DNA of 52,324 nucleotides, from contig CAYZPW010000009.1 of assembly GCA_964480475.1 (NCBI GenBank), positions 1-52,324 of the forward strand, in the 5' to 3' direction. Source of the stretch: an uncultured bacterium. Its GTDB lineage: Bacteria > B130-G9. The translations under genes and the position numbers were made by a program. Shown here one piece after another: positions 15,784 through 32,823 of the stretch. The notes under the pieces were generated by a model. That model saw only the letters and a program-made list of their open reading frames with translations. It searched no databases and was not told the origin of the DNA. Within the stretch, counting starts at the first letter, position 1, and every line of letters starts with the position of its first letter.

Positions 15784-16101
15784 TCAGCCCTTTTCGGATA
15801 CTGGAACGCCTTCCAGCCTGTCCAGCCTTTCCTCAATCCTTGTGAGGGTATCCATGACCGCCGGTTCCGTTTCTTCCTTACGTGTGAATGCCGGATTGTT
15901 GACCCACCAGTCCATTCCCATCTCTTTGGCCTTATCTACGGAACAAATGACAAGTCGCAGCTGAATCGTCAAGAGCTCGACATCCACCAAGCTTATGCGG
16001 ATATCACCGGCTATGACGATCCCCTTATCCAGGACGCGTTCGAGGAGGTCGGCGATATTGGTGCTTTGGATCGAATGGGTTGGTGCCCGCTGAATGGCCA
16101 T
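15784..16101 (-). CDS. gvpJ: Gas vesicle protein GvpJ (GvpA/J/M family with a C-terminal extension)
   Basis: Core motif DLLERVLDKGIVIAGDIRISLVDVELLTIQLRLVICSVDKAKEMG. Confidence 0.85.
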   Translation of the reverse strand: MAIQRAPTHSIQSTNIADLLERVLDKGIVIAGDIRISLVDVELLTIQLRLVICSVDKAKEMGMDWWVNNPAFTRKEETEPAVMDTLTRIEERLDRLEGVPVSEKG

Positions 16102-16353
16102 CCTAAGACCTCCGGTTTAGATTGATTATTACTGATTGCTTTCTATCTGTGCGGTTTTTCAATGTTGAGATGAAGATTGAAGATAGCTCATGCGCTTCAA
16201 TCGTCAATCATCAATCCATATAGTTGTCATTGCTCCGGCCACCTGTTTTTCCTCCGCCACCAGTAAATCACACAGAGTAGTATCCCTATAGCCACGGCCA
16301 GAATGGCCACGACTAAGACTCCTTCTGGTTCATGGCCATGCGCTGTGGATGAG

Positions 16354-16749
16354 TTATAGTAGTTTTCCAAGCGGCCCTAGATCGAGATTGAGGTCTTCGT
16401 CCTCGAGGCCGAACTCCTTACGAAGCCTTTCGATCTCCTGGGCTTGCTTCATCAGCGTTATCCCCAATTCTTCGATTTCATCATCATTCAGTGACTTTGC
16501 CTCGATGCGCCGGAGCGCCTGTCGCTCCAAAAGCTCATGCAGCAGTTTGACCAGTGTGAGCACCAGTTGGCCGAGGCCGTTTTTCACATCGTTCTGATTC
16601 AGGTTCAGGCGGCCCGCGCATTTGCGTTCAGATTCCGCACTTTTTTCCCCCTTTGCCGGGGAGCGTTGGAAAAAACCGCTGCTCTGCATCACCTTCGCGA
16701 AATCACCGAGCGCCTCTGACTCTATCTTTGAGTGTTTCTCAGAATACAT
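16354..16749 (-). CDS. gvpK: Gas vesicle protein GvpK
   Basis: LVLTLVKLLHELLERQALRRIEAKSLNDDEIEELG matches the GvpK signature. The start is taken at the internal Met (MYSEK) so the gene does not overlap the upstream one. The annotated ORF extends to 16806. Confidence 0.8.
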   Translation of the reverse strand: MYSEKHSKIESEALGDFAKVMQSSGFFQRSPAKGEKSAESERKCAGRLNLNQNDVKNGLGQLVLTLVKLLHELLERQALRRIEAKSLNDDEIEELGITLMKQAQEIERLRKEFGLEDEDLNLDLGPLGKLL

Positions 16750-16759
16750 GCCTATCCCC

Positions 16760-16999
16760 TTATGCCCGCCGTTCCCGTGCTGACTTTCTTCCCCAGCGGG
16801 AACCATCGGTATCGAAAGGGATCATCTCGCGGGCGGTTTCAATCGATGTCAGCACAACTTGAAGAGAGAGGTAGATCAGATCGATGTTCGCCACCGAAAT
16901 GGTCACCTCCCCCCTCACGACCGCACCTTTGTTGAGGATGCGATCGAGGGCCTCACATAAAGAGACCTGCTCGGTTTCTTCCAACGCATATTCGGGCAT
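16760..16999 (-). CDS. GvpA-family minor gas vesicle protein (GvpM/GvpS-like)
   Basis: 79 aa containing LCEALDRILNKGAVVRGEVTISVANIDLIYLSLQVVLTSIETAREM. Confidence 0.7.
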   Translation of the reverse strand: MPEYALEETEQVSLCEALDRILNKGAVVRGEVTISVANIDLIYLSLQVVLTSIETAREMIPFDTDGSRWGRKSARERRA

Positions 17000-17032
17000 A
17001 AGGCACCTTTTGATTCAATCCATAATCCATCG

Positions 17033-19003
17033 TCAATTGTACAGTGCTTCTCCCAGTTGTCCGAGCGCCTCGAGCCCTCGTGGCTCGCCCTGCTGATAGA
17101 CCAGGGTTTGATGCTGATCGGGAAATGCCCGCTTATACTCTTGCATGATTTCGTTTTCCCGCCGGCGAACAGCTGAACACAGGGGACATTCGCTGGGAGG
17201 GGCAGCCAGGTTGAGAAACAGCACCGGGATATGGATATGCATCCGTTGGCACGCCGCGACGAGGTCTTGGGTCTCTAGAAACGCCATCTCCGTCAGGACG
17301 GTCAGGCTGAAGAGCGCCGAGGATTCGTCGCTCTTCAACAGTTCTTGCAGCAGCTTGAGGGCTTTGGACATCTGCACCATGCGCTGTGAGATCTTGGGAA
17401 GTCTGAAGATGCGCTTGTATTTTAAGAAGAGATTAAAGAACGCTTTGAGCCACTGGTCAATGAGCTCGGGGGTCTCCAGGAGGCGCACCAGGTGCCCGGT
17501 TGGCGCCGAGTCGAGAATGAGGAGGTGGGACTTTTGTTGAGCAAGAAACTCCATGGCCTTCACGAGGGCCATGACCTCGTCAATGCCGGGCGGCGAGAGG
17601 TCCATGACCCGTTCCATTACGTCGCGGTCGAAGGTCAAATCAAGACTCGAAGAAATGTCGCTCAAGAATCTCTCCAACTCCTGCGCATATTGGTCTTTTA
17701 AGGTCTCAAACTCTGATTGGGCATCTATCTCCACGGCTGTCAGGCCGGGGCTTAAGCTGGTCGGCGTCGCGCCGATGGGCGTGTCCAGACAGGCTGAGAG
17801 AGACTGCGCCGGGTCGGTCGAAAAGAGAAGCACTTCCTTGCCGTTAAGTGCCCGTGCCATTCGGATGGCGGTGGCGCAGGCCATCGTGGTTTTGCCCACC
17901 CCGCCTTTGCCGGCAAACAGCAGAAGCTTGGTATCAAGCGCAGGTAACTTCGCCGGCCTTATGACTTCGGGCTGCCTGGTCGTTTGAGGAATACTTACCG
18001 AGGGCAGCGGATTCGGCAATACAAACGCATTCTCCCAGAACATCTGCAGGGCTTCTTGGCCGCGAATTTCCTGCGGGTACATGGGAACTGCCGACAGGAC
18101 ATATCCTGCCAATCCGGCATACCCTTTACCGATATTGACGATCTGCCGCGCGTACCGATCCGAACACTGCGGGCACGCGCTTTCCGGATACAGCCGGTTG
18201 ACAACGATGTCGCAAACAGTTATCTGCCGCCGCTCCAGCTCGTTTAACAGCAGCCGGGTCTCGTGGATGCTCAGCGCCTCGGCCAGCAGCACCGGCACAA
18301 AACGGCAGTGGGCCGAATCCGTTAAAAGGCGCCGCATACCCGTTACCGAGTTGGACAAATCCAGAAGAAAGTCATCGAGCGCATCGCGTTGATAGGACCC
18401 GGCAAACAGACGCAGCATGTAACGATGTGTGGCCAGCAATGCATCCAGCGCATCGAGCCATTCTTGGATCAATTTCGGCATGGCCAGAAGCCGTAATGTA
18501 TGACCGGTGGGAGCGGTATCCACCACAATGCAGTGGTATTTTCGACCTTCCACCCACTGTGTGATTTCCAAAAAGGCCATTAGCTCATCCAGTCCGGGAA
18601 GAGAGAGGTCCATGAATCGGCTGATGTCCTCATTATCTAAAAAGGTCCCGCGCGAAGCGATTTCCCTCAGTTTAGCATTGTGTTTGTTTTTAAAGTCGGC
18701 CAAGCAGCCCTGGGCATCAATTTCGAGTGTCTGTAAATTGTCCGGAAGGGATGAATCCTCCAGGCTGTCGCTCAGGGAGTGAGCCGGATCGGTTGAGACA
18801 ATGAGAAAACTCCGTTCAGGCTGATGGCGGGCGTAGTGGAGGGCTGTCGCCGCGGCGCACGTGGTTTTGCCCACGCCGCCTTTGCCGCCGAACAACAAAA
18901 GCTGCAAATCACCGTCATTTAGAAAAGAGGGCGCCGCGGCCACCGCGGCCCCACCGTGCGAAGGTCGTTCCAGAGTGTTTACGTTCTTATTACTCACCAT
19001 CAT
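17033..19003 (-). CDS. Tandem-duplicated (pseudo-dimeric) ArsA/GET3-family ATPase; each half ends in a CxxC motif
   Basis: Two deviant Walker A loops (FGGKGGVGKTT and FAGKGGVGKTT) and two DTAPTGH / DSAPTGH A-loops. CPQC sits in half 1 and CPLC in half 2. The start is placed at the internal MM to avoid an 80-bp overlap with gvpG; the ORF as listed reaches 19072. Confidence 0.8.
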   Translation of the reverse strand: MMVSNKNVNTLERPSHGGAAVAAAPSFLNDGDLQLLLFGGKGGVGKTTCAAATALHYARHQPERSFLIVSTDPAHSLSDSLEDSSLPDNLQTLEIDAQGCLADFKNKHNAKLREIASRGTFLDNEDISRFMDLSLPGLDELMAFLEITQWVEGRKYHCIVVDTAPTGHTLRLLAMPKLIQEWLDALDALLATHRYMLRLFAGSYQRDALDDFLLDLSNSVTGMRRLLTDSAHCRFVPVLLAEALSIHETRLLLNELERRQITVCDIVVNRLYPESACPQCSDRYARQIVNIGKGYAGLAGYVLSAVPMYPQEIRGQEALQMFWENAFVLPNPLPSVSIPQTTRQPEVIRPAKLPALDTKLLLFAGKGGVGKTTMACATAIRMARALNGKEVLLFSTDPAQSLSACLDTPIGATPTSLSPGLTAVEIDAQSEFETLKDQYAQELERFLSDISSSLDLTFDRDVMERVMDLSPPGIDEVMALVKAMEFLAQQKSHLLILDSAPTGHLVRLLETPELIDQWLKAFFNLFLKYKRIFRLPKISQRMVQMSKALKLLQELLKSDESSALFSLTVLTEMAFLETQDLVAACQRMHIHIPVLFLNLAAPPSECPLCSAVRRRENEIMQEYKRAFPDQHQTLVYQQGEPRGLEALGQLGEALYN

Positions 19004-19244
19004 CCTCGCTGAGCGTTCCTCTCGCCTCGATAGCATCCAGACGGTCCAGTAACTCTTTTTCACGCTGGTCAAACTCGGCCTCGGTCATCCGGCCGGTCTC
19101 AAGGGCCATATACAGTCCACTTAACTGTGTCGTCAGCGCCTCGGCCTCGTTGGTGATCTCCTCCTGCGTCGCGTTGTAGAGCTCACGGAAAATCCACAGG
19201 ATGCTGCGGGCCGGAAAAAGCAGAATATCGTCAACGATAAACAT
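18990..19244 (-). CDS. gvpG: Gas vesicle protein GvpG
   Basis: 84 aa. ILLFPARSILWIFRELYNATQEE...EAEFDQREKELLDRLDAIEA fits the GvpG pattern. Confidence 0.7.
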   Translation of the reverse strand: MFIVDDILLFPARSILWIFRELYNATQEEITNEAEALTTQLSGLYMALETGRMTEAEFDQREKELLDRLDAIEARGTLSEDDGE

Positions 19245-19279: not shown

Positions 19280-20037
19280 TCAGTACTTCAGGTCGATCTC
19301 CACAAAGTTGTGCGGCGCCCAGGGCCCGTTGTAGTCCAATGCAAAATCGTTGTCGAACAGGCCGGCGGCCTGCAAGATCCCGGCTTCAAACCTGGCCTCG
19401 GCCTCCCTGGCCACCAGGCAGGCCAGATTCATGACCTCCCGTTCAGTGCGGCATTTATTCCGTTTGATCGCGACACAATGGCGGGATAGAACGTTAACGG
19501 CATCCTCGGTATGGTCCTCTCGGTCCTCGTTGAGGATGCGGTCGAACATCCTTCCCAGCTCGATCTTCTCCTCTCGCGTCGGTTCACGCTGGGTTCCGAA
19601 ATACGTGTCGCGGGCGGACCTTAGCGCCGGGTGAGTATCGATAAAATAATCGAAGATGTTTGGCACGTCCCAGGTGACGCGCAGCCCCATCTCCACCTTC
19701 CCCTGCACACGCTCAAATTGCTCTTGAAAGGCCTCTTGATTGAGGGAGAGTATCCGCTGAATGGCCGCCGGACCGTCGGCAATGATGCCGAAGGACATGG
19801 GCAGCGGCGTGCTCTCGGTCATCAGCTGTTTGAGGACGTTCTGGTGCGCGGCCAGATGGCGGCGCTCCGGACGAATCTTCTGGTTCAGAACATCGCTGAC
19901 GACCGCCGAGGCGCCACCGTTGGAAATCGTATAGACGTCGCCCCCCGTGATGCCGACAAGACCGTTTGTTTGGCTGCTGTCGCCTTCAACAATGGCATAC
20001 AAATAAAGTCCCTGATTGGGTGAGGTCTGTGCCGACA
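19280..20037 (-). CDS. gvpF: Gas vesicle protein GvpF/L family
   Basis: GLYLYAIVEGD near the N-terminus and DYNGPWAPHNFV near the C-terminus. The start is proposed at the GTG at 20037, which is preceded by AAGGCAGGTGG. This gives about 252 aa. The listed ATG ORF (to 20212) would overlap the zinc-ribbon ORF. Confidence 0.75.
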
Positions 20038-20054
20038 CGATTCCACCTGCCTTT

Positions 20055-20294
20055 TTAAGTTCTAGACGAGGATACACCGGCCTCCTCCGGCCGCTCGCTA
20101 GAATCGGTGGGGCCAGATAGGTCCAGCGGCGCGGCGGACGGGCTGTTTGCCAATTGTACCGAGCGGAGGTATCCATTTTCGGTTTTGATCTCAAGCAATG
20201 CCTGACAAGCAAAGCATTTGATTACACCGGTATAGTCGTCATACGCTTCGGATACGTCCACATTGTGTCCGCATGAAAGACAGTTAATCTTCAT
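20055..20294 (-). CDS. Small zinc-ribbon protein (CxxC-x17-CxxC) of unknown function inside the gvp operon
   Basis: 79 aa beginning MKINCLSCGHNVDV...IKCFACQALLEIK. It fits neatly between gvpF (GTG start) and the upstream ORF. Confidence 0.4.
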   Translation of the reverse strand: MKINCLSCGHNVDVSEAYDDYTGVIKCFACQALLEIKTENGYLRSVQLANSPSAAPLDLSGPTDSSERPEEAGVSSSRT

Positions 20295-20737: not shown

Positions 20738-21745
20738 TCAAAGACACATCCGCGGTTCGCGCAGACTATCGTTGCCGGAAGCCTGATGCTTTTCACAGAC
20801 CGTTTGTATGATCTCTTCCATCTTGGGGAGCATGAGCGACCGCCCCTCACGGGTAACCTTGGCCGTGTCAAGGTTCAAAACATCGCGACAGACGCGCATG
20901 AATGCCGTGTCGCTCGCGCTTGCCCGGCCGCCCATGTGGGCGAGGATTTTGGCAACGGCAATACAGGTCCGGATCGTCGGCCGGTTGTTATTCACACCGA
21001 TCTGGCGCAGCTCCCGGATGATATCGACAATGATTTCGGAATCTGATTGGGGCAGGCCGGACTTGGCCTTGGTGATTTGAATTTCGGTGTTGCGATCGAA
21101 ATGGTCCACTTCGATGGTGATGAGCCGGTCCATGAGGGCATCCTGAACTTTGTGGACGCCTGCATATTCTTCCGGATTGGAGGTAAAAAGCGCCCGAAAG
21201 TTGGGATGCACCTCAATATACCCCATACCCGATCGGCGCAGCTTGGGCAGGTTGAGGATTTTCTCCTCCAAGACGCTAAGCAGGGCATTATTGGCTTCGG
21301 GTCGGGAACGCGTGAACTCATCATAAATCAGCGTGGACCCGTTTTGGCAGGCCCTGGTCAGCCGGTTATCTTCCCACATGGTATTATAATGTTCCTCGGT
21401 CTTTAATACCGAATGAATGTAATTATCGATGAGTTTATACTTGCGGTACCCCGAATCCCGGCCAATCAGATCGGAGCTCGAAAACTCGTCATCCCCATGA
21501 ATGAGTGTCACCGGCTGTCCCAGCTGCGCCGCCACATGGAACGCAAGCGTCGTTTTGCCGGTCCCGGCAGGCCCGGCGAAGTGTATCGGGTATCCGACTT
21601 CAAGGTAGGCGAGGGCACGGTCAGTCAGATCTTGCACATAGGGGGTAACGACGAAGTCTTCACTGGCCTCCGGTGTGACGTTGTCATCGGGAGCGGGGAC
21701 CATTACCCTATTATCGGATACAACTCTCAGACCTGTTTCATTCAC
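20738..21745 (-). CDS. gvpN: Gas vesicle AAA+ ATPase GvpN (CbbQ/NirQ/GvpN family)
   Basis: The P-loop region reads GYPIHFAGPAGTGKTTLA. The length and the rest of the sequence are typical of GvpN. Confidence 0.9.
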   Translation of the reverse strand: MNETGLRVVSDNRVMVPAPDDNVTPEASEDFVVTPYVQDLTDRALAYLEVGYPIHFAGPAGTGKTTLAFHVAAQLGQPVTLIHGDDEFSSSDLIGRDSGYRKYKLIDNYIHSVLKTEEHYNTMWEDNRLTRACQNGSTLIYDEFTRSRPEANNALLSVLEEKILNLPKLRRSGMGYIEVHPNFRALFTSNPEEYAGVHKVQDALMDRLITIEVDHFDRNTEIQITKAKSGLPQSDSEIIVDIIRELRQIGVNNNRPTIRTCIAVAKILAHMGGRASASDTAFMRVCRDVLNLDTAKVTREGRSLMLPKMEEIIQTVCEKHQASGNDSLREPRMCL

Positions 21746-22984: not shown

Positions 22985-22998
22985 AAAGACTTCTCGCC

Positions 22999-23226
22999 TT
23001 ACGCCGGAGCAGCCGCTGCCGCGGTGAGGCCAATGGCCTCGGCGTACTTCAGATAAGTCTCGACTGAGGCGATCACAACTCTTGCCTCGATGGAGAGGAG
23101 CTCGATCCCAACCAGGGAGACCTTGGCCCAGGCATCGATCACGATCCCCTTATCCAGGATCCGGTCGACGACTTCGGCAAGGCTCGAGGAATCGGTTGAC
23201 TTCTGAATCTTCGCCCTTTCCGCCAT
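22999..23226 (-). CDS. gvpA: Major gas vesicle structural protein GvpA
   Basis: [54 protein letters not shown] is a near-canonical GvpA sequence. A strong ribosome-binding site (AAAGGAGGAcaatcATG) precedes the start. Confidence 0.95.
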
Positions 23227-23309: not shown

Positions 23310-23324
23310 GCAATATATGTGCCA
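23310..23324 (-). promoter_or_regulatory. Sigma-54 (-24/-12) promoter reading TGGCAC-ATATA-TTGC on the minus strand, about 85 bp upstream of gvpA
   Basis: The plus strand reads GCAAtatatGTGCCA. Its reverse complement matches the TGGCAC-N5-TTGCW consensus exactly. An NtrC-family sigma-54 activator is encoded in the same locus. Confidence 0.6.
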
Positions 23325-23520: not shown

Positions 23521-23937
23521 TCAGCGGAACGAATTCCCCATATCGAGGGAGGAGGCCGGTAGTTGGGAGACGCTTCTGATGATCCTCAGAATCTCATCAT
23601 TTTTGAAGGGCTTGGACACGAAATCATCGATGCGCTTTTCCTGCAGCGCCCTCTCCACCATCGGGTCATTTTGATAAAAATAGCCGGAAACGACCACGAT
23701 CCGAATTGAGGGGTCCAGTCTCCGGATCTTTTTTGCCAATTCCAAGCCGTCGATGTCCGGAAGTTTGGCATCCAGAAAAGCCATTTGATAAGAACCTCTG
23801 CGCAGCAGTCCAAGAGCCTTCCCGCCGCTTAATGCGCTCCGGGCAGTCATTCCCACGCTTTCGATGATATGCTCGAGAGCCCAGCACATATCCGGTTCAT
23901 CATCTACGACGAGAAACATCGGAGTTTTCGCTGTCAT
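23521..23937 (-). CDS. Single-domain response regulator (CheY-like receiver)
   Basis: MFLVVDDEPDMCWAL...FLDAKLPDIDGLELAKKIR...VVVSGY. The start is taken at the internal Met (MTAKTPMF). The 5' extension in the listed ORF looks non-coding. Confidence 0.75.
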   Translation of the reverse strand: MTAKTPMFLVVDDEPDMCWALEHIIESVGMTARSALSGGKALGLLRRGSYQMAFLDAKLPDIDGLELAKKIRRLDPSIRIVVVSGYFYQNDPMVERALQEKRIDDFVSKPFKNDEILRIIRSVSQLPASSLDMGNSFR

Positions 23938-24004: not shown

Positions 24005-25534
24005 TTACAGCATCGGCAGCATGATGGTAAAACTGGTTCCCCGGCCCTCAATGCTCTCCACCTCGATGGTACCGGAATGCTGCTCGATGATGGCGTAACA
24101 GATGGAAAGGCCCAATCCGACACCTTCTCCCACCGGTGAAGTCGTGAAAAAAGGGTCAAATATCTTATCGATGTTCTCTTCTACGATACCGTGGCCCGTG
24201 TCGGCCACTCGAATCAACGCGCTGCATTTCGTTTTCTGGACGGATACCGTTAGGTGCCCGCCGTCCGGCATCACTTTGAGCCCGTTCAGAAAGAGGTTGA
24301 TGAAAACCTGTTGCAGCAGACCGGCACTACCGTTGATGAACACCGGCTGCGCGGGGAAATCTGATTTGAGCTTGATTTTTTGGATGTTGATCTGGTTGGA
24401 AATGAGCGCAATGGTCTCTCTGATGATATCAAGAAGATTGACCTCCTCCCTGTTCGATCCCTCTGGAGGGCGCGCGAATTTTAGCAGATTCTCGATAACG
24501 ACGGATGCTCTCTCAATCCCCTCGTGGAGCTTCCTGGCGCATTCGATGCGGAAATCCGGGGAGATGTCATCCGCCAAAAGGAATTGGGCGGCTGAAGAAC
24601 AGATCGCCAGCGGGTTTCGAATCTCATGGGCGATCCCACCGGCCATCACGCCCAGCGCAGCAAATTTTTGCGACTGGCGAAGCTGCATCTCCATTTTGCG
24701 GCGCTCGGTATGATCTCTGCCCACGACCACGAATCCGGCTGTCTCCAACTGCTGGTCTTTCATCGGCGAACAAACCCAGGAAACATGGGTATCGAGCCCC
24801 TTTTTCGTGACGAGGTCCCACTCCCCGGTGACCGAATCTCTCCGAGTTCTCATCTCGGAAAATATCTTCCTCACGTTTTCCTGGTGATCCTTGGCGCATA
24901 ACCTGTAGAAAACCTGGTTTTTTACCTCAGTGAAACTGTATCCGGAGATTCTCTCCGCTGCCGGATTCCAAGAGAGTATCCTTCCGTCGGTGTCGGTGGA
25001 CAACATAATGTCACTGGCGCTGTCGAAGATACTCGCCAGATGGCGTTGAACGCGTTGAATCTCATCGCTCAATTGGATCTGTTCGGTTACATCATCCATT
25101 AAGAGCATTACGTTCTCAACGCTCCGCTGCCACTCAAACGGGACAATGCGATAATAGTAAGTCCGCATCGAAACGCCCGGAGATCGAAAGAACATCCGCT
25201 GCCCTTTGGTGGGCTGGCTCGAACGGAAGACCTGGCGAATCTGGCCGATGATATCCATCTTTTCGATAATCACGGCGGGAAAGATCTTCTGAAGCGGGAA
25301 ACCGATGGTGTCGGATGCCGACCGCCGGCTCTTCTTCAGAAAGTTCCGATTGGCAAGCACGACACGCATGTTCTGATCGATCATCAGAACCGAAGACGGT
25401 ATCGTATCCAGCAGCATGGCATACAGCTTCTGATGCCAGTCGGAGGCGCCGTCGAGTACAATTCCGGTCTTAGTTGAATCCGGCAAAGAGGCCTTTCGCA
25501 TTTCCGACGGATGGCCGTTGGCTTGATCTGTCAT
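24005..25534 (-). CDS. Sensor histidine kinase with PAS domains, a HisKA domain and a HATPase_c domain
   Basis: H-box HEIRNPLA. HATPase_c G-boxes (…DTGHGI…, …GLGLSI…). PAS-like repeats upstream of these. The start is proposed at MTDQANG so that it overlaps the upstream gene by 4 bp. Confidence 0.8.
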   Translation of the reverse strand: MTDQANGHPSEMRKASLPDSTKTGIVLDGASDWHQKLYAMLLDTIPSSVLMIDQNMRVVLANRNFLKKSRRSASDTIGFPLQKIFPAVIIEKMDIIGQIRQVFRSSQPTKGQRMFFRSPGVSMRTYYYRIVPFEWQRSVENVMLLMDDVTEQIQLSDEIQRVQRHLASIFDSASDIMLSTDTDGRILSWNPAAERISGYSFTEVKNQVFYRLCAKDHQENVRKIFSEMRTRRDSVTGEWDLVTKKGLDTHVSWVCSPMKDQQLETAGFVVVGRDHTERRKMEMQLRQSQKFAALGVMAGGIAHEIRNPLAICSSAAQFLLADDISPDFRIECARKLHEGIERASVVIENLLKFARPPEGSNREEVNLLDIIRETIALISNQINIQKIKLKSDFPAQPVFINGSAGLLQQVFINLFLNGLKVMPDGGHLTVSVQKTKCSALIRVADTGHGIVEENIDKIFDPFFTTSPVGEGVGLGLSICYAIIEQHSGTIEVESIEGRGTSFTIMLPML

Positions 25535-26373
25535 GTGATCCAGGCTACCTCGTCCGGTCGCTCGGGTGTAACGAAGTTGTACGGTGGCCACGGGCCGCTC
25601 AAAAGCAGTTTATGGGGCCCGCGCTTGCTGACACGCCGGAACGCTTGCCGAAATGATTCAACCGACGCTCGGCGGACGAGAAAATAGAGGGAGAGGACCC
25701 GATTGCTAAATGGGGACACCGTCTGACGTGTCGGACCTGTCAGACCCGTCGGAGCCAATTCCGATTTGAACCGGACAAAGAGCCCAGAAAACGCAGATCG
25801 AATCTGTGCGATTATGTGCTCAATCTCTTTTAGATTACGGTCCTCGCGGGAATAATGGGCTTTGCGTGCCGACAAGTACTGCTTGCCGGACCGCGGGAAT
25901 TGAGTATTCGGACCAGTCGGACGAGTCGGACGAGTCCGACGAGTCGGACCAGGAGGGCATTGAGCTTCTGACATCATGACCCGGATTCCCATCTCCACGC
26001 TGCCCTTGAGCTCGCTTAACAGGGACAAATAGTAGTGGGCACGCTGCCCCAAATACCGCCCGACCTCTTCCTTGTCCGGGAACAGACAGCCGTAGCGCAT
26101 CGGGATGACGGTGCGGTCGTGGTTAAAGCGTTCGATGATCCTTTGGTAAGCCTGAATGCGCGTGATATCCGGTGTCAGATTCGGATGGACAGATGGAGAG
26201 ACCGAGGCGCCGAGACCATTGTGCGATACAACCATAATCGGTTGGCCGTCAACCCCTGTGAGGCGGACGGTTGTGTAGGGGCGTGGTCTCAGACCCGCCC
26301 GCTGTGCCCCTGCAAGGCGGACGGCTGGCGACTTTTCCTCGTTGGCAAATATGCAATAAAGGAGGTATTTCAT
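25531..26373 (-). CDS. GvpF/L-family paralog that carries an in-frame insertion of the 27-bp palindromic repeat plus two 9-bp microsatellite tracts
   Basis: KYLLYCIF at the N-terminus and LSGPWPPYNFV at the C-terminus. Residues AGAQRAGLRPRPYTTVRL are encoded by the solo repeat at 26275-26301 together with an 18-bp direct duplication. PTRRTRPTRPTGP and PTGLTGPTRQT are encoded by GTCGGACNN 9-mers. Confidence 0.7.
   Translation of the reverse strand: MKYLLYCIFANEEKSPAVRLAGAQRAGLRPRPYTTVRLTGVDGQPIMVVSHNGLGASVSPSVHPNLTPDITRIQAYQRIIERFNHDRTVIPMRYGCLFPDKEEVGRYLGQRAHYYLSLLSELKGSVEMGIRVMMSEAQCPPGPTRRTRPTRPTGPNTQFPRSGKQYLSARKAHYSREDRNLKEIEHIIAQIRSAFSGLFVRFKSELAPTGLTGPTRQTVSPFSNRVLSLYFLVRRASVESFRQAFRRVSKRGPHKLLLSGPWPPYNFVTPERPDEVAWIT
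26275..26301. repeat. Solo copy of the 27-bp GC-rich palindromic repeat, flanked by a roughly 20-bp imperfect direct duplication (cccctgtgaggcggacggttgt / cccctgcaaggcggacggctgg), lying inside the coding sequence
   Basis: GTAGGGGCGTGGTCTCAGACCCGCCCG is identical to the reverse complement of 1284-1310. Confidence 0.6.
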
Positions 26374-26398: not shown

Positions 26399-27271
26399 TC
26401 ACACCATTTCCAAGGTCGGGGAGAAGCTGTAGGGGGGCCACGGCCCGGAGAGCTCAAAGTGAAGTCCGTGCTCCGCCTGCGCGGCCTTTATTCGGTTGAG
26501 GCACGCCGCGAAGACATCCTGGGAGTCTCTGGAAAGCAGAAACGCCCAATTCAGAACCATGTCCACATCCAAGCCGGTGGCATCACGGGAAAGCACTTTG
26601 CGTTCGCAGAAACGCGCCGCATACTGCCCGAGGTCTTCCCAAACTGCGGTCAAGATCGCTTTCAATCTCTGGTTCAATTGCCGCTCAACTTCGGCCGCCA
26701 TCTGCCTCTGCATGAAATACTGCTTTCCGGGTGAGAAAGATGCGAGACGCTCCTTCTCACCGGCCATCAGGTCCGAATTCAGCGACCTGTGCGCTTGCGC
26801 CCTGTCCAAGAATCCTTTCAGCGCCCATTCCGCTTTGTTGTCCACCTCGCCTAAGAAACGCGAAATGGTGCCATGGTGACGGACACATAATCCCACCATC
26901 CGCTGGGATGAGGCAAAAATCGTCCCGAAGCCTGCTGGCAGCACCGGTGAGTGCCGCATCACAGCCTCCACCACTTCCTGGTGACGACAGGCCCGGGGGC
27001 CCACCCAGGCCAGGTCCTTGAGGTCCGTTTCGGCCGACGGCCCGCTGAAATCCGCAACCATCACCTTGCTGGCCACGGCCACGATGTCCTTGTACGTCCA
27101 TTGTGAGACGGGATAGCGGGCATCCATGCCGGCGACCTTCAGCAACGGCACTCTCGCGGCCTGCGCAAAACCATAAAGATAGACGCCTTGCGCTTCGCGC
27201 GGTTGTGCTGTCGAACCAGTCAGAGAGGTCGGACACGTCAGACTGGTCGGACATCTATTATCAACCATCAC
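26399..27271 (-). CDS. gvpL: GvpL/GvpF-family gas vesicle protein with an N-terminal PTSLT repeat
   Basis: GVYLYGFA near the N-terminus and ELSGPWPPYSF near the C-terminus. The N-terminus reads CPTSLTCPTSLTGST and is encoded by 9-bp GTCGGAC-type tandem repeats. Confidence 0.7.
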   Translation of the reverse strand: MMVDNRCPTSLTCPTSLTGSTAQPREAQGVYLYGFAQAARVPLLKVAGMDARYPVSQWTYKDIVAVASKVMVADFSGPSAETDLKDLAWVGPRACRHQEVVEAVMRHSPVLPAGFGTIFASSQRMVGLCVRHHGTISRFLGEVDNKAEWALKGFLDRAQAHRSLNSDLMAGEKERLASFSPGKQYFMQRQMAAEVERQLNQRLKAILTAVWEDLGQYAARFCERKVLSRDATGLDVDMVLNWAFLLSRDSQDVFAACLNRIKAAQAEHGLHFELSGPWPPYSFSPTLEMV

Positions 27272-29379
27272 ACCGCCTCCAGGGCGCTAAAAAGATCGTC
27301 TGACGTGAGGCACAGATCGGGAACGTCGTCGGCCCCCGCGTCCCGTCCGGCCTGCACCGCGCGTCGGAGCGCAGAAAGCGCTGCTTTGTGACAGATGCCG
27401 GCAATTTCGGCCCCGCTGAGACCCTCGGTCTTTGCCGCCAGATCGTCTGGGCGAATATCCGCTGCGAGTGGTTTGTTGCGCAGATGAATCGCAAAAATCT
27501 TCTCCCGGCCATTTTTATCCGGCATGGGGATCTCGATAATCTCGTCAAAACGTCCGGGCCTCAGCACCGCCGGGTCAAGCATATCGGCCCGGCTTGTCGC
27601 GCCCAGGACCAGGACCCCCTTGAGTTCTTCGATCCCGTCAAGTTCGGTCAGGATTTGACTGAGCACCCGTTCCGACACGTGCGCATCCGATGCGCCGCCT
27701 CGAATCGGAACCAGGGCATCGATCTCATCAAAGAAAATGATACAAGGGGCAGCCTGCCTAGCCTTTTGAAAGACCTCCCGGACGGCCCTTTCGGATTCGC
27801 CCACATATTTAGAGAGGAGTGCCGGCCCCTTGACGGAAATAAAGTTGACGTGAGTTTCATTAGCGATGGCCTTGGCCATTAGCGTCTTCCCGCAGCCGGG
27901 CGAACCGGACAGGAGAATCCCCTTGGGCGGCTTGATCCCGGCCTGATCAAAGAGACGGGGAAACTTTAGGGGCCATTCCACCGCTTCCACCAGACTCTCC
28001 TTAACCGCGTCCAGGCCGCCGACGTCCTCCCAGCGAACATTCGGTACCTCGACGAAGACCTCTCGAATGGCCGATGGCTCCACCTCCCGCAGGGCGGCGC
28101 GGTAATCGTCCATGTGGACTTCCAGGGCCGCGAGCTGCTCATAGGGGATGGATGTCAGCCCAAAATCGATATCCGGCATGATCCGTCGCAAACAGAGCAT
28201 GGCGGCCTCGCGGCAGAGGGCTTCAAGATCGGCGCCGACGAAACCATGCGTAATTTCGGCTAAGTGCGCCATGTCCACGTCCGGGGCCAGCGGCATGCCG
28301 CGGCTGTGGATGTCCAGTATCTCCAATCGGCCGAGGCGGTCCGGAATCGGAATGCGGATTTCCCGGTCAAAGCGGCCGGGGCGCCGCAAGGCCGGGTCCA
28401 GGGCATTGGGGATATTGGTGGCCGCAATGACGATGACATTTTGACGCTTGGTAAGCCCGTCCATGAGGGCCAAAAGCTGGGCGACCACCCGCTTCTCAAC
28501 GTCCCCCACAACTTTTTCCCTGGGCGGGGCAATGGCGTCGATTTCGTCCAGAAAGACGATGCTGGGCCCCTTGCGGCTGGCCTCATCAAAGATCTTACGC
28601 AGATGCGCCTCGCTTTCTCCATAGAACTTGTGGATAACTTCCGGGCCGCTGACGGAAAAAAACTGGGCCTCGGTTTCGTGGGCGATAGCCCGGGCAATGA
28701 GGGTTTTGCCGCATCCCGGAGGACCGTGCAGCAGCACCCCCTTGGGGGCTTCGATCCCGAGGCGGCTGAAAACCTCCGGATACCGCAGCGGCAGCTCGAT
28801 CATCTCGCGTATCCGCAAAAGCTGAGGCTTAAGCCCGCCGATGTCCTCGTAGGCTACCCGGCCCGCGGAGTCCGCTTCTTTCGTCTTGACGATGGCAAGT
28901 CGGGTGGTGGGATTGATGAGAACAGGGCCTTCAGGGACCGTATGCTGCACTTTGAAGTCGGCAGACCGGCTGCCAAATAGATTGGCCCGGATCCGGTCGC
29001 CCACCAAAACCGGCAAGCCGTCCAGAAGACTTCCGATGTACTTCAGATCACGCTCGCTCGGGGTGATGCTTGTCGGGGCTAATGATACTCTCTCCGCCGG
29101 GCTACAGGCCGTTTTGCGGATGTTCACGAACTCATCGAGGCCGGCGCCGACGTTCTCTCTGGTGAGGCCATCAAGCTGCACCCGGGACTGGCCGCGAATC
29201 TCCTTGTAAGCTGGCATGGCCTTACAGACGGTTCTGCGTTTGGCCTCGATCTCTACGATGTCACCGATAGCCAAATCCAGTCGCTTCATGTCTTCCGGGC
29301 CCATTCGGGCAAAGCATCTTCCAACGTCCTTGCTGAGGGCTTCCGTAACTTTCAGTTTAAGTCCTTCTTTCTCTTTCAC
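27268..29379 (-). CDS. Cdc48/VCP/VAT-like double-ring AAA+ ATPase (N-domain, D1 and D2)
   Basis: Two complete AAA modules (GPPGCGKTLIARAIA...DEIDAI and GSPGCGKTLMAKAIA...DEIDAL). The N-terminal domain resembles a double-psi barrel. Confidence 0.85.
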   Translation of the reverse strand: MKEKEGLKLKVTEALSKDVGRCFARMGPEDMKRLDLAIGDIVEIEAKRRTVCKAMPAYKEIRGQSRVQLDGLTRENVGAGLDEFVNIRKTACSPAERVSLAPTSITPSERDLKYIGSLLDGLPVLVGDRIRANLFGSRSADFKVQHTVPEGPVLINPTTRLAIVKTKEADSAGRVAYEDIGGLKPQLLRIREMIELPLRYPEVFSRLGIEAPKGVLLHGPPGCGKTLIARAIAHETEAQFFSVSGPEVIHKFYGESEAHLRKIFDEASRKGPSIVFLDEIDAIAPPREKVVGDVEKRVVAQLLALMDGLTKRQNVIVIAATNIPNALDPALRRPGRFDREIRIPIPDRLGRLEILDIHSRGMPLAPDVDMAHLAEITHGFVGADLEALCREAAMLCLRRIMPDIDFGLTSIPYEQLAALEVHMDDYRAALREVEPSAIREVFVEVPNVRWEDVGGLDAVKESLVEAVEWPLKFPRLFDQAGIKPPKGILLSGSPGCGKTLMAKAIANETHVNFISVKGPALLSKYVGESERAVREVFQKARQAAPCIIFFDEIDALVPIRGGASDAHVSERVLSQILTELDGIEELKGVLVLGATSRADMLDPAVLRPGRFDEIIEIPMPDKNGREKIFAIHLRNKPLAADIRPDDLAAKTEGLSGAEIAGICHKAALSALRRAVQAGRDAGADDVPDLCLTSDDLFSALEAV

Positions 29380-29459: not shown

Positions 29460-29960
29460 CTACAGGGCGCACTTTATCTCCAAAATGCCGTTATTGCAGG
29501 ACATGTGCATCTTCTCTTTGGGATAACTTCTAGGCATCAGGACTTCTTTGCGGTATTTCTTCTCCCCGTGTTCAGCATATAGCGTCAGCAGATCGTCTTT
29601 GACGTCGATTTGGACATCATCTTCACTGATGCCCGGCATCTCGACCACAACTAGTGTATGGTCCTTCTCCTCGAAGACATCGGCAATGGGCTCGCGAATC
29701 TCCTGCACCACAGCTTCACCGGACTCTTCATCGCGGCGGATGTTTCCGAAAGGCTCAATCTTGACTTCATCCCCTCCCAAACCCACTTTGACGGAGAAAC
29801 CGTATATCCCCTTCAGGTCCTTTCCCTTTCGTTTGAAATCGATCTCTCCGGTTCTAGACAGCCGCTCCCCCTTTTCCGCGAGCTCGCCAAGCTTATCTAC
29901 CAGGTCCGCCAAACCTCCTAGAATCCCTCCGAAGCCGCCTCCGCTCTTCTTGTCACTCAT
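29460..29960 (-). CDS. Hsp20/alpha-crystallin family small heat-shock protein
   Basis: Gly-rich N-terminus. C-terminal alpha-crystallin domain (...VVVEMPGISEDDVQIDVKDDLLTL...ILEI). It overlaps the upstream activator gene by 8 bp. Confidence 0.7.
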   Translation of the reverse strand: MSDKKSGGGFGGILGGLADLVDKLGELAEKGERLSRTGEIDFKRKGKDLKGIYGFSVKVGLGGDEVKIEPFGNIRRDEESGEAVVQEIREPIADVFEEKDHTLVVVEMPGISEDDVQIDVKDDLLTLYAEHGEKKYRKEVLMPRSYPKEKMHMSCNNGILEIKCAL

Positions 29961-31368
29961 GGTTCCCTCCGCTATTCATTTGAATACCCAGTTTCTTGAC
30001 CTTAGTATGCATCGTTTTGTAGTCTATTCCGAGAATCCGCGCTGCTTTGGCCTTGTTCCCGCCTGTGGACTGTAACGTCCGGGTAAGAACTTCTCTTTCC
30101 ACTACCGCCGTGCTCTCACGCACGATGGTCTTCAAGGAGGCCTTCCCCAATAGTCCTCTCTTCATTTCAGGCCCCACGTCCCACGACACCGATGATCGCT
30201 TCCGGATATCCAGATGACCTTTGGTGATAATCTCGTCGGCTAGAAGAACCGCGCGGCGGACGGTGGACCGGAACTCACGCACATTCCCGGGCCATGGGTA
30301 ATCCAGCAGCGTTTCCAGGGCCTCTTCAGAGAACCCGTTCACGTTCTTGTTCAATTCTGCGTTGGCGATGTCCAGAAAACGCTTGGCCAGATAAGGTATA
30401 TCATCTCTTCGCTCCCGCAGGGGCGGTACTCTTATGGTAAACTCCTTCAGCCGGAAAAAGAGATCGCTGCGAAAAGCGCCTGCCTCGGCGAGGCTGTTAA
30501 GGTCCCGGTTGGAGGCGGTCAGCAGACGAACGTCTATCTTGGCAGGTTTGTTGCTGCCCACCGGCAAGACCTCTTTCTCCTGAATAACCCGTAGAAGTTT
30601 GGCTTGCGAAGATAGTGGCAGGTTGGTGACCTCATCTAACAACAGCGTCCCACCTTGGGCGGATACGAGTTTGCCAACTTTTCTCTGTCCCGCCCCGGTA
30701 AACGCGCCTTTCTCGTGACCAAACAGCTCGCTTTCCAGTAGTGCCTCCGGAATGGCCCCGCAGTCCAATGGAACAAAAGGCCCTTGGGAACGCAAACTGG
30801 CCTTGTGTATGGCCCGGGCAACAACCTCTTTTCCAGACCCTGTCTCCCCTTGGATCACCACAGTAAAATCGGACCGGGCGACTCGCTCGACCATCGCGAT
30901 AAGGTTGCCGACCGACTCGCTGGGTCCCATTGCCTCTCTCAGCGGGCCGTCCTTTCTGATCTGGCTGGTAAGGTTCTTCAGTCTCCGTTTGAGTTCTCTT
31001 TCTGAAAGCGCTCCGTGAACTGCACGAATCACATCGTCATGCTCAAAAGGCTTGGTGAGATAATCGTACGCACCGGCCTTTATCGCTTCAACCGCGCCGT
31101 GGATTTCGCCAAACGCCGTGATAATGACCACGGGAAGGTCGGGGTCCAGTTCTTTGGCGTGCACCAACACCTCTGAGCCATCCATGTTAGGCATTCTCAT
31201 GTCAAGTAACATGAGATCGGGCGAGGCGGAACGGATGGACTCCAGCGCCGGCTCGCCATCATTCGCCATAATGGCTTTGAATCCCTCGCGTTCTACGAGC
31301 GTTGCAAGCATCCGGCAGATATCCCTGTCGTCATCCACAATCAGAACTCGGACCTCGAGTTTCTCCAT
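29953..31368 (-). CDS. NtrC-family sigma-54-dependent transcriptional activator (receiver, AAA+ sigma-54 interaction domain and Fis-type HTH)
   Basis: Receiver motifs (VLIVDDD…LLDMRMPNMDG), Walker A GETGSGKE, a GAFTGA loop, and a C-terminal HTH (AARILGIDYKTMHTKVKKLGI). The start is taken at MEKLEV. Confidence 0.85.
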   Translation of the reverse strand: MEKLEVRVLIVDDDRDICRMLATLVEREGFKAIMANDGEPALESIRSASPDLMLLDMRMPNMDGSEVLVHAKELDPDLPVVIITAFGEIHGAVEAIKAGAYDYLTKPFEHDDVIRAVHGALSERELKRRLKNLTSQIRKDGPLREAMGPSESVGNLIAMVERVARSDFTVVIQGETGSGKEVVARAIHKASLRSQGPFVPLDCGAIPEALLESELFGHEKGAFTGAGQRKVGKLVSAQGGTLLLDEVTNLPLSSQAKLLRVIQEKEVLPVGSNKPAKIDVRLLTASNRDLNSLAEAGAFRSDLFFRLKEFTIRVPPLRERRDDIPYLAKRFLDIANAELNKNVNGFSEEALETLLDYPWPGNVREFRSTVRRAVLLADEIITKGHLDIRKRSSVSWDVGPEMKRGLLGKASLKTIVRESTAVVEREVLTRTLQSTGGNKAKAARILGIDYKTMHTKVKKLGIQMNSGGNHE

Positions 31369-31391
31369 GGCTCTTGCTCCGTTCAATCCCC

Positions 31392-32030
31392 TCACCGCCC
31401 CGCAGAGCCGGCGGGTTTCTCGATCAGATGCGCCAGATGAATATCTCCGTTGAGGAACGGCTCGGGTGAGTGAAGCATCCCCAAAAAAAGGACCCCAGTC
31501 TCCCCCGCACATAGGCTGTGATTGATGCGCTGCGCGATATAACGATCACGCGCTTTGAGTAACGATTCGGCCAATGTCTTTTGGTGTGTTTTCATCTTGG
31601 CCGTTCTGGACGCATTGCCGGTATCCAGGATGCATTTGGACAATTCGTATTCTCTGACCAGAAGTTCAGCCGATTCGGTTCCCATGAGGGCAGCGCCCTT
31701 TTCTATCAAACGCAGGAGAAGCTGATGATTGCGGCTGCCCGAAGTCGCCAGTTCCTGAACGATCTCCCGCTCACGCCCGCAAACAGGCAGACTATCTTGA
31801 TAGAGGCGGACTTTAGCGTAAACCAGGTCCAGCCGGTTGATAGCGGTTTCTATGTCCGCCCATATCTGATCTATGGCAGCCACCTTGCGCTTCAGAAGCG
31901 TTTCTCCCATCCTGTAAAGATGAGCCCGGCGAATCGATTTGCCCAGAAGGCCCATATCGGCCTGTGTGTGCACAATGGGCACGTAGGCCAAGGTCCTTTC
32001 GAATCCGCTAGCGTCTGCTTTCCCAATCAT
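31392..32030 (-). CDS. Hypothetical protein
   Basis: 212-aa ORF with protein-like composition but no motif I recognise. Confidence 0.3.
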   Translation of the reverse strand: MIGKADASGFERTLAYVPIVHTQADMGLLGKSIRRAHLYRMGETLLKRKVAAIDQIWADIETAINRLDLVYAKVRLYQDSLPVCGREREIVQELATSGSRNHQLLLRLIEKGAALMGTESAELLVREYELSKCILDTGNASRTAKMKTHQKTLAESLLKARDRYIAQRINHSLCAGETGVLFLGMLHSPEPFLNGDIHLAHLIEKPAGSAGR

Positions 32031-32130
32031 ATCCCGCGGTCAATACAGTGAATCCCATCTCGAAAGAATAAGTCCTATCCAGCCTCGGGCTGCAGTTCAT
32101 ACGCCAAACACCTCGAAACAAGACCGATGG

Positions 32131-32823
32131 TCACCGTCCGTCCAACACTCCCCGAACGGTCTCTGCAAATTGCTGTTCGGCGAAGGGCTTCACGATAAGG
32201 GCGCGAACACCTATATCCTTGGCCTTTTCCCCAGAGACCCTCTCACTGTGTTCAGCACTAAGGATGACCAACCTGTCCCTGAACACGGCGACAACGTTCT
32301 TAGGGCGACCGATAGAATCCCTCAGGATGGGAAGGACAGTACTCTCCGAAATCGCCTCTGGATACTTTTGCCGCGCACGGTACTCTGAGACTCTGATCTG
32401 CGCTCGGTCAGAGAGAAGGTCCTGCCAATGACGGGCGAATCCGGGCCGATCTTCCACCATGATGAATCGGGTGAGCCTAGTACCAACGAGCTCTTGTTCC
32501 TTGCGGCGTAGCTTTTCTGAAGCAATCCTATTAACGTCTAATGTGCCAGCATGTACATCTGTAACGACGAGGCCGTCCATTAACGCATCGGCAAGGGACG
32601 TGAACTGGTCAAACCCTATCCACGCCTTTTTCATCATGGCGCCATCGGCTATTCTTCGGCATGCCTGCGTGACATCGGTATGTGCTGCCTTCTTGCTTAT
32701 CACGGACAATCCTCGCCTCTTTACTGGATCAATTGTAGAAAGCTGGTAGTTGCTTAGCGTGAAGCGGCATAAATCGCAACTTTGAGGCAGTTTAGGCGTG
32801 ATGACTTCATTTACGTCATCCAC
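32131..32823 (-). CDS. Hypothetical regulatory protein: a PAS-like N-terminus and a degenerate receiver-like C-terminus
   Basis: The C-terminal ...IGVRALIVKPFAEQQFAETVRGVL resembles the alpha5 region of a receiver domain. Weak call. Confidence 0.3.
   Translation of the reverse strand: MDDVNEVITPKLPQSCDLCRFTLSNYQLSTIDPVKRRGLSVISKKAAHTDVTQACRRIADGAMMKKAWIGFDQFTSLADALMDGLVVTDVHAGTLDVNRIASEKLRRKEQELVGTRLTRFIMVEDRPGFARHWQDLLSDRAQIRVSEYRARQKYPEAISESTVLPILRDSIGRPKNVVAVFRDRLVILSAEHSERVSGEKAKDIGVRALIVKPFAEQQFAETVRGVLDGR

Follow-up and report, generated by a model that had tools for sequence, protein, structure and literature searches.

The gas-vesicle proteins GvpW, GvpZ and GvpH of Serratia sp. ATCC 39006 reportedly received their names in 2011. 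Two-domain ArsA homologues of ~637 amino acids (aa) were described in gvp operons, together with hsp20, in Bacteroidetes/Chlorobi, cyanobacteria, an acidobacterium and a deltaproteobacterium, and it was proposed that the ArsA homologue 'energizes a biogenic step', with a chaperone role for Hsp20 (Castillo and Saier, 2010; PMC2963123). In Serratia, 19 of 19 cluster genes were deleted, and gvpA1, gvpF1, gvpG, gvpA2, gvpK, gvpA3, gvpF2, gvpF3 and gvrA/B proved to be required (Tashiro et al., 2016; PMC4982088). GvpV/W/X/Y/Z are called 'proteins of unknown function' in the Serratia papers. Here we describe a gas-vesicle locus on the minus strand of a 52,324-nucleotide (nt) stretch of DNA from an uncultured bacterium (contig CAYZPW010000009.1; 'the window' refers to this whole stretch). 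The gene content and order of the locus place it among the two-operon gas-vesicle clusters of the proteobacterial type, which was defined in Serratia sp. ATCC 39006. A first-pass annotation had taken a tandem ArsA-like ATPase, a Cdc48-like ATPase and an Hsp20 for genes recruited to this locus, and protein comparison showed them to be the orthologues of Serratia GvpW (tandem Get3/ArsA-like), GvpZ (CDC48/VAT-like) and GvpH (Hsp20).

The locus belongs to a cluster type that has already been described and is not a new system. The three genes had been called an undescribed accessory module, which does not hold, since their Serratia orthologues were deleted individually in 2016 and the combination of ArsA with hsp20 was published in 2010. 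Gene membership and dispensability are already in print, and a domain-level reading is present in database annotations. That reading did not appear in the literature that we searched, where no paper contained both 'gas vesicle' and 'Get3' and no link was drawn between bacterial gvp clusters and Cdc48. What is new here is the predicted fold of GvpY and its constant company with Hsp20 and CDC48, together with the retention of the D2 ring in the published gvpZ deletion.

The identities of the Serratia genes were fixed by mapping the published deletion primers (supplementary table, PMC4982088) onto the chromosome CP025084.1 (locus L098). The gvpZ primers map to the start, codon 451 and the end of the CDC48 open reading frame (ORF; 10001-12163, with primer sites at 9994-10012, 11351-11370 and 12137-12156). 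The gvpW primers map to the start of a 637-aa tandem ArsA ORF and the gvpY primers to the start of a 192-aa ORF, and the gvpV primers flank a 105-aa ORF. The primer ends that fixed these ORFs had no mismatches, except for one in gvpY_5R; gvpW_3F, gvpW_3R and gvpY_3F did not map. On this chromosome the 637-aa gene lies between gvpG and gvpA2, the 192-aa gene, which has no family match, precedes gvrA, and Hsp20/GvpH and then CDC48 follow gvrA. A search with the Methylobacter homologue led to a 90%-identity cluster containing the Serratia protein M9WML1/WP_021013987.1, a 720-aa 'CDC48 family AAA ATPase' that starts with MSEE and carries VRWEDV at residue 451.

Every window protein found its positional equivalent as the best hit among the Serratia proteins, one-to-one and at 27-68% identity (Table 1). 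GvpZ was the best-conserved protein at 68% (GvpN, 58%) in this comparison, which did not include gvpA1. The window reads Y-like, gvrA, Hsp20, CDC48, two gvpF genes, gvrB and gvrC in one block, and gvpA, a C-like gene, gvpN, a 111-aa gene, a Zn-ribbon ORF, gvpF, gvpG, ArsA, a gvpA-family gene, gvpK and another gvpA-family gene in the other. The internal orders A1-C-N-V-F1-G-W-A2-K-A3 and Y-gvrA-H-Z-F2-F3-gvrB-gvrC are shared with Serratia, as are a sigma-54 promoter upstream of gvpA1 and an encoded NtrC-type activator, sensor kinase and receiver. Genes abut or overlap inside each block and 294 nt separate the blocks; we split the locus into two operons because the sigma-54 promoter lies upstream of gvpA. 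In Serratia, gvpA1 is under GvrA/sigma-54 control and each of the two operons is a single transcript by reverse-transcription PCR (PMC4982088), and the promoter element in the window fits control by the NtrC-type activator that the cluster itself encodes. The start of gvpH overlaps the stop of gvrA, the start of gvpF2 overlaps the stop of gvpZ, and the probable start of gvpW overlaps the stop of gvpG. With such packed junctions inside two operons, the earlier assignment of the three extra genes to the gvp locus is well founded.

The differences from Serratia are few. The two blocks stand in the opposite order, an arrangement already seen in Desulfomonile tiedjei and Psychromonas ingrahamii (Tashiro et al., 2016; PMC4982088). 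The window gvpY keeps its place beside gvrA and so heads the regulatory block, whereas in Serratia it ends the structural block. There is no gvpX in the window, and its slot is taken by a gene remnant and a 47-aa ORF that is not conserved. The Zn-ribbon ORF between gvpV and gvpF1 is an addition with no detectable Serratia counterpart, and the protein in the GvpC position bears a C-terminal helix-hairpin-helix (HhH) domain, unlike that of Serratia.

The mapped primers also define the published Serratia gvpZ allele. Residues 5-450, comprising the N domain and D1, are removed, and residues 451-720, the whole of D2, are left in frame. The deletion joint reads MSEE-LE-VRWEDV, and VRWEDVG marks the start of D2 at residue 448 of the window CDC48-like protein. 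Because the entire D2 AAA+ module is retained, the published gvpZ deletion may not be a null allele.

GvpW scored 376.7 bits against TIGR00345 (GET3/ArsA/TRC40), for which the cut-off is 135. It has two complete nucleotide sites, with GKGGVGKTT, STDPAH/Q (switch I) and D(T/S)APTGH (switch II), and one CxxC motif in each half (CPQC at 300-303 and CPLC at 629-632). In Get3, the CxxC pair binds zinc at the dimer interface. Two CxxC motifs were present in 19 of 24 GvpW homologues, the Serratia type included. Among structures in the PDB, the best sequence match was 'ATPase ARSA1' (5zme), which we take to be the fused tandem Get3 homologue ArsA1 of Chlamydomonas; archaeal and fungal Get3 came next and E. 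coli ArsA lower, with E-values for these matches of 1e-33 to 1e-49. GvpW thus has in common with Get3/TRC40 and Chlamydomonas ArsA1 the deviant Walker A motif GKGGVGKT, the DTAPTGH switch II and a CxxC in each half, and with ArsA1 also the tandem fusion.

With E. coli/R773 ArsA, GvpW shares the superfamily and the two-domain architecture. It is ~28% identical to E. coli ArsA, which has no CxxC motifs, and it stayed below the cut-offs of the ArsA equivalog models (TIGR04291, 167 bits against 650; NF041417, 185 against 800). The metalloid-binding Cys115 and Cys423 of the E. coli plasmid ArsA are Met and Gly in GvpW, and no arsB, acr3, arsD, arsR or other ars genes were found in the parts of the window that were scanned. 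Context, family scores and cysteine positions rule out the reading of GvpW as an arsenite-pump ArsA, and the arsenic-resistance setting that the first-pass annotation had named as a danger to its idea is absent. By these features GvpW is a member of the GET3/ArsA/TRC40 family that is Get3-like in what was tested, and not an arsenite-pump ArsA. Clusters 4 and 6 of Castillo and Saier likewise have a duplicated ArsA homologue of ~640 aa and hsp20 in a gvp operon without ars genes; there the protein was treated as a transport energiser, and the Get3-like features and the CDC48 partner went unremarked. By analogy, GvpW plausibly works like Get3/ArsA1, as an ATP-driven clamp on hydrophobic segments. 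Unlike Get3/TRC40, it has no evident tail-anchored client nearby, and no receptor of the Get1/2 type is known for it. The sole tail-anchored-like ORF, of 47 aa with a transmembrane segment (16227-16370), is not conserved, and it was rejected as a client since gvpK abuts gvpA3 in nearly all relatives.

GvpZ scored 876.7 bits against TIGR01243 (cut-off 802.65) and contains CDC48_N, CDC48_2 and two AAA domains with lids. Walker A/B motifs and arginine fingers are present in both rings, as are aromatic pore loops (KFYGESE and KYVGESE), and the best PDB match, end to end, was the archaeal 'VCP-like ATPase' 5g4f (1.3e-208). It therefore resembles archaeal VAT/Cdc48/p97 in having N, D1 and D2 with all catalytic motifs. 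It differs in being bacterial, in lying inside an organelle gene cluster and in forming its own gvp-linked clade, and in place of ubiquitin-type adaptors it has GvpH and GvpY as possible partners. Archaeal Cdc48-20S and actinobacterial Cpa couple a Cdc48 to a proteasome through a docking tail. The C-termini of GvpZ vary among 19 homologues without a conserved penultimate Tyr, so that an HbYX-type tail is not conserved, and proteasome genes were not seen in the window regions scanned. GvpZ has, on these motifs, the profile of a threading unfoldase uncoupled from the proteasome. The small heat-shock protein (sHsp) gene directly upstream of a threading AAA+ motor recalls, as a functional analogy only, the pairs of sHsp and AAA+ disaggregase (IbpA/B-ClpB-DnaK; Hsp26/42-Hsp104), although the gvp motor is of the CDC48 type and not ClpB/Hsp104, and no Hsp70 partner is encoded. 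Cooperation of GvpH with GvpZ is inferred from gene adjacency alone.

The gvpY genes that we compared lie at 31392-32030 (-) in the window, 6562-7140 in Serratia, 11080-11661 in L011 and 8382-8939 in L093. The family comprises 2168 clusters and has no Pfam domain. Its alignment has 18 invariant columns, including H21, D25, E61, D79, C84, E87, H102, E119, E127, R161, D162 and H187. A profile search of PDB sequences with this alignment gave nothing meaningful. The Pfam match stayed under the family cut-off (PF01963, 16.4 bits against 26.8), and 22 of 40 members had weak matches to TraB/PrgY/GumN. In a fold search with the predicted GvpY structure, the parallel beta-sheet core and flanking helices matched solved members of the TIKI/TraB-PrgY-GumN/EreA/ChaN superfamily, with ChaN and HopBA1 as the top two. 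GvpY is thus confidently predicted to have a TIKI/EreA/ChaN hydrolase-like fold. These families have been united in a single TIKI superfamily, in whose active members His-Glu pairs next to the core strands carry out hydrolysis (PMC6254334). H21 and H187 of GvpY come after predicted core strands, and the TIKI/Ere enzymes are far larger than GvpY (~200 aa). The literature that we searched assigned no fold or function to GvpY. gvpY always accompanies Hsp20 and CDC48: gvpH, gvpY and gvpZ are directly adjacent in the alphaproteobacterial clusters, and gvpY stands beside gvrA elsewhere.

The association of these genes with gvp clusters is conserved. Three close CDC48 homologues on long contigs (78-90% identity) have the same synteny as the window, the nearest named relatives being metagenome-assembled genomes (MAGs) labelled Candidatus Coatesbacteria and Desulfobacterales. 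The locus of Methylobacter psychrophilus (Gammaproteobacteria) is also syntenic, with 67% identity for CDC48 and 41% for ArsA. In Alphaproteobacteria, a Methylovirgula MAG and plasmids of Methylosinus and Methylocella carry gvp clusters that end with Hsp20, a GvpY-like gene and CDC48 (~56%). Altogether, gvp synteny was found in at least 8 genomes from three proteobacterial classes (Delta-, Gamma- and Alphaproteobacteria). An exact 20-mer of a published gvpZ primer had 6 matches in genome contigs, including the Methylobacter and Methylovirgula loci; the matches L008 and L009 lacked similarity to CDC48 or gvp and were put down to chance.

We then consider 80 metagenome loci anchored on gvpN (GvpN 64-94% identical), scored per slot. 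ArsA was found between gvpG and gvpA2/K in 20 of the 26 loci having both, and CDC48 in all loci (15/15) that covered the interval from Hsp20/gvrA to gvpF2. Hsp20 sits between gvrA and CDC48 (10/10), and gvpA2 always follows gvpW. The co-occurrence in related genomes on which the first-pass annotation had made its idea depend was borne out by these counts and by the synteny in three classes. In the loci without ArsA (L027, L036, L038, L042, L048 and L071), the gap from gvpG to gvpA2 is only 134-422 bp. At least L036, L038 and L048 keep CDC48 and Hsp20, so GvpW and GvpZ are separable by independent loss. One survey locus has an additional Hsp20-like gene after CDC48. A second Hsp20-like gene directly after CDC48 is also seen in some relatives (L002, 12130-12642; L014, before gvpF2), and L002 has an additional receiver gene at this site.

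In a neighbour-joining tree, the gvp-linked CDC48 proteins formed one clade apart from rhizobial and sphingomonad CDC48 proteins without gvp neighbours. Outside the Proteobacteria, plasmid p4 of Nostoc sphaeroides (L097) has a cyanobacterial gvp cluster followed directly by an ArsA-family gene (7977-9881) and a CDC48-type gene (9919-11760). The latter encodes D1-D2 with no N domain and is 49% identical to the window protein over 535 residues; the ArsA-family ATPase has no CxxC pair. The pairing of ArsA-like and CDC48-type genes beside gvp is therefore not confined to Proteobacteria. On a Natrinema thermotolerans plasmid (L095), an Hsp20 gene (4756-5004) overlaps the start of a CDC48-type gene (5001-7265), and gvp genes are lacking in the vicinity. 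Gas-vesicle clusters may have taken up the sHsp-CDC48 pair as an older two-gene cassette.

We propose that GvpW, GvpH, GvpY and GvpZ serve the very hydrophobic, aggregation-prone GvpA-family proteins as a proteostasis layer that is non-essential and depends on conditions, and we give this reading of the gene content a probability of roughly 55%. The chaperone system for GvpA that the first-pass annotation had suggested is plausible in this sense. GvpH would keep misfolded or off-pathway Gvp protein extractable, and GvpZ, as a hexameric threading motor, would pull it from aggregates or misassembled structures. GvpY would work alongside GvpZ, hydrolysing what has been extracted or serving as a cofactor. 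GvpW, as an intramolecular Get3-like pseudo-dimer, would shield hydrophobic Gvp segments using ATP and release them at the growing vesicle. Its likeliest clients would be GvpA-family proteins, because gvpA2 always follows gvpW. Such a layer would matter under load and would not be an obligatory step of assembly.

Several observations weigh against this proposal. Serratia strains with deletions of gvpW, gvpH, gvpY or gvpZ made vesicles indistinguishable from wild-type ones (PMC4982088), and in a 2024 preprint each single deletion of gvpW, gvpH, gvpY or gvpZ raised the vesicle yield in BL21-AI E. coli. About a quarter of the otherwise intact related clusters have no ArsA (6/26), nor do the alphaproteobacterial gvp clusters examined. 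The published gene lists of the vesicle-making Anabaena, Bacillus megaterium and haloarchaeal clusters contain no GvpZ. Our survey reaches relatives of this cluster type only (GvpN at least 64% identical), and the CDC48 tree has small sampling and no support values. On the other hand, loss of gvpH, gvpW, gvpY or gvpZ lowered or abolished the signal in E. coli (Hurt et al., 2023), and Tashiro et al. cautioned that 'non-essential' genes may have subtle or condition-dependent roles (PMC4982088). A lack of deletion effect, which the first-pass annotation had counted against its own idea, is largely what Serratia gave; against it stand the conflict in the E. coli data, the D2 ring kept in the gvpZ allele and the caution of the authors. 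A helper layer fits the dispensability in Serratia, the context-dependent effects in E. coli and the loss of ArsA from a quarter of the intact relatives.

A more specific form of this proposal is possible, although we hold it to be doubtful. GvpH, GvpY and GvpZ would be a dedicated holdase/hydrolase/unfoldase machine that pulls subunits out of the amyloid-like shell, or out of its off-pathway aggregates, and processes or destroys them, and GvpW would be a bacterial fused Get3 that chaperones non-membrane GvpA-family clients to a protein-shelled organelle.

CDC48/VAT enzymes are able to extract subunits from stable assemblies. GvpH, GvpY and GvpZ could dismantle finished or collapsed vesicles and recycle or degrade the shell, with GvpZ extracting subunits and GvpY hydrolysing them. 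This known activity, the threading pore loops in both GvpZ rings, and a predicted GvpY fold from a hydrolase superfamily that includes endopeptidases would suit such turnover; gvpH, gvpY and gvpZ are also located in the regulatory and not the structural operon, and the Serratia assays, which scored vesicle formation and flotation, would have missed the role. However, the E. coli signal fell rather than rose on deletion of gvpH, gvpY or gvpZ, and the best fold matches of GvpY, ChaN and HopBA1, are not known peptidases. We regard turnover as unlikely. Regulation is a further explanation, in which GvpZ with GvpH and GvpY would unfold or degrade GvrA/B/C, or else a limiting assembly factor, and in this way set its level or activity. 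It draws on the operons shared by gvpH, gvpZ and gvpY with gvrA/B/C in every lineage, on the published sensitivity of Serratia vesicle formation to the stoichiometry of GvrA/B/C and GvpF1/F2, and on the published precedent of the haloarchaeal nucleoside triphosphatase (NTPase) GvpD, which lowers the activator GvpE. Since vesicle production looked unaltered in the Serratia gvpZ and gvpH deletions, the alphaproteobacterial H-Y-Z genes follow the structural genes away from gvrA, and homology to GvpD is absent, we find a regulatory role harder still to credit.

ParA/MinD-like ATPases serve other bacterial organelles. GvpW belongs to the same broad P-loop NTPase class and has weak CbiA/ParA/MinD matches, and it could be a ParA/MinD-like ATPase that spaces or segregates vesicles instead of a Get3-like chaperone. 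The strong full-length match to GET3/ArsA/TRC40 (377 bits), the matches to Get3/ArsA1 structures and the Get3-type DTAPTGH and paired CxxC motifs all point away from positioning, and ParA-type models score GvpW far under their cut-offs, making this role very improbable. Generic pipeline names ('ArsA family ATPase', 'CDC48 family AAA ATPase') might suggest that the ArsA-like and Cdc48-like genes stem from an arsenic-resistance or general stress setting and lie among gvp genes by chance. This reading is excluded for practical purposes by the synteny, junction and cysteine results, namely a position conserved in three proteobacterial classes and most survey loci, overlapping or nearly abutting junctions with gvp genes, and metalloid cysteines that are gone in a protein ~28% identical to true arsA, without ars genes in the window parts scanned; both Serratia operons are also single transcripts (PMC4982088).

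All long ORFs of ~15.8-32.8 kb are on the minus strand, and the conserved cluster spans 15784-32030 (-). Families were called with curated Pfam and NCBIfam thresholds, which each gene named by the first-pass annotation passes, the GvpC-like one apart. Profile searches confirmed in one orientation the listed gvpA, gvpN, three gvpF/L genes, gvpG, gvpK, two minor gvpA-family genes, ArsA-like gene, CDC48 and Hsp20. The list omitted gvrA, gvrB, gvrC, the 111-aa gvpV-like gene, the 79-aa Zn-ribbon ORF, the 212-aa GvpY and the sigma-54 promoter. The upper limit that it gave, 32823, is probably too wide. For the PAS-domain protein at 32131-32823 (-), whose receiver-like C-terminus is only partial, related loci have no equivalent upstream of gvpY, and it probably lies outside the conserved cluster.

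Table 1. Features of the gas-vesicle locus in window coordinates, from the regulatory block to the end of the structural block, with identity to the Serratia sp. ATCC 39006 counterpart.
Feature	Position	Strand	Evidence and remarks	Identity to Serratia protein
gvpY-like, 212 aa	31392..32030	-	heads regulatory/accessory block; TIKI/EreA/ChaN-superfamily fold predicted	44% (GvpY)
gvrA, NtrC-type sigma-54 activator	29953..31512	-	REC + Sigma54_activat + HTH_8 (Pfam); probable start ATG 31368	46% (GvrA)
gvpH, Hsp20/alpha-crystallin, GvpH-type N-terminus	29460..29960	-	PF00011, 32.4 bits vs 20.8; PF05455, 26.2 vs 22	53% (GvpH)
gvpZ, CDC48/VAT-family double-ring AAA+ ATPase (N, D1, D2)	27268..29379	-	TIGR01243	68% (GvpZ)
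gvpF2, GvpF/L family	26399..27271	-	PF06386, 171 bits; positional equivalent of Serratia GvpF2	
gvpF3, GvpF/L family	25531..26373	-	PF06386, 150 bits	
gvrB, PAS-HisKA-HATPase sensor kinase	24005..25591	-	Pfam; probable start ATG 25534	53% (GvrB)
gvrC, single-domain response regulator	23521..24159	-	PF00072; probable start ATG 23937	49% (GvrC)
sigma-54 -24/-12 element TGGCACATATATTGC	23310..23324	-	perfect TGGCAC-N5-TTGC; ~85 nt upstream of gvpA start, inside 294-nt gap	
gvpA1, major shell protein	22999..23226	-	PF00741, 61 bits; 97% identical to relatives	
GvpC-position protein, 360 aa	21773..22855	-	33/40-aa amphipathic repeats + C-terminal helix-hairpin-helix	
gvpN, MoxR-like AAA+ ATPase	20738..21745	-	TIGR02640, 340 bits vs 267	58% (GvpN)
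gvpV-like, 111 aa	20381..20716	-	no family match	45% (GvpV)
79-aa Zn-ribbon-like ORF, CxxC...CxxC	20055..20294	-	between gvpV and gvpF1	
gvpF1, GvpF/L family	19280..20212	-	PF06386, 218 bits; probable start GTG 20038	47% (GvpF1)
gvpG	18990..19244	-	PF05120, 51 bits	
gvpW, fused tandem Get3/ArsA-family ATPase	17033..19072	-	PF02374 twice; probable start ATG 19003	46% (GvpW)
gvpA2, GvpA-family minor protein	16760..16999	-	PF00741, 63 bits	64% (GvpA2)
gvpK	16354..16806	-	PF05121, 107 bits; probable start ATG 16749	
gvpA3, GvpJ-like GvpA-family	15784..16101	-	PF00741, 66 bits; last in structural operon	58% (GvpA3)

The protein in the GvpC position is GvpC-like only in its place after gvpA and in its 33/40-aa repeats, and a search for PF01304 (Gas_vesicle_C) gave no match, so the earlier name stands by position and repeats but not by family. 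Its repeat periodicity is 33/40/73, with an xMAR motif marking the repeats, and it is 32% identical to the syntenic genes of loci L001 and L002. The C-terminus matches HHH_5 at 28.4 bits (HHH_5/DUF4332-like), and the syntenic gene of L001 gives a weak match as well. An HhH domain is an unusual add-on for a shell-stiffening protein. Many survey loci, and L001 as well, have the Zn-ribbon-like ORF, with 46-69% identity. We considered whether it corresponds to a small unannotated ORF of the Serratia-type cluster and rejected this for want of any similarity; it is an unnamed member of delta-type gvp clusters.

In most relatives gvpK and gvpA3 abut; the window has ~270 extra bases at this junction. 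Part of the extra stretch is the 47-aa non-conserved ORF with its C-terminal transmembrane segment (minus strand). At 16103-16207 (-) it also contains what is left of the C-terminus of a small four-helix-bundle gene (57% identity over 21 aa), and L014 has that gene intact at the corresponding place (16479-16859). A PF05635 '23S rRNA IVP' gene lies between gvpF2 and gvpF3 of L001 (13126-13494), and small genes seem to have been inserted repeatedly into these gvp clusters. Downstream of gvpA3, 13500-15700 contains only short fragmentary ORFs on both strands, among them a DUF1565 fragment (14212-14577) and a hydrophobic 145-aa ORF (14574-15011), and may be decayed sequence at the cluster edge. 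The flanks that were scanned carry ordinary chromosomal genes (cytochrome c assembly, carbamoyltransferase, gap-pgk-tpi and a type I restriction enzyme).

If the more specific form of the proteostasis proposal is true, no Cdc48-type segregase before GvpZ would have been assigned to a bacterial organelle, Cdc48 would gain a new type of partner, and GvpW would place Get3 outside membrane insertion. The 'non-essential' label would then depend in part on a gvpZ allele in which the whole D2 ring is still present. Engineering of gas-vesicle clusters into acoustic reporter genes is under way, and among bacterial clusters that of Serratia is the present workhorse. In that work gvpW, gvpY, gvpH and gvpZ have been treated as dispensable unknowns and kept or deleted empirically, with conflicting results. 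The domain identities, the conservation of GvpZ and the retention of D2 turn them into testable hypotheses on how the extremely hydrophobic, amyloid-like shell protein may be kept soluble, corrected or recycled.

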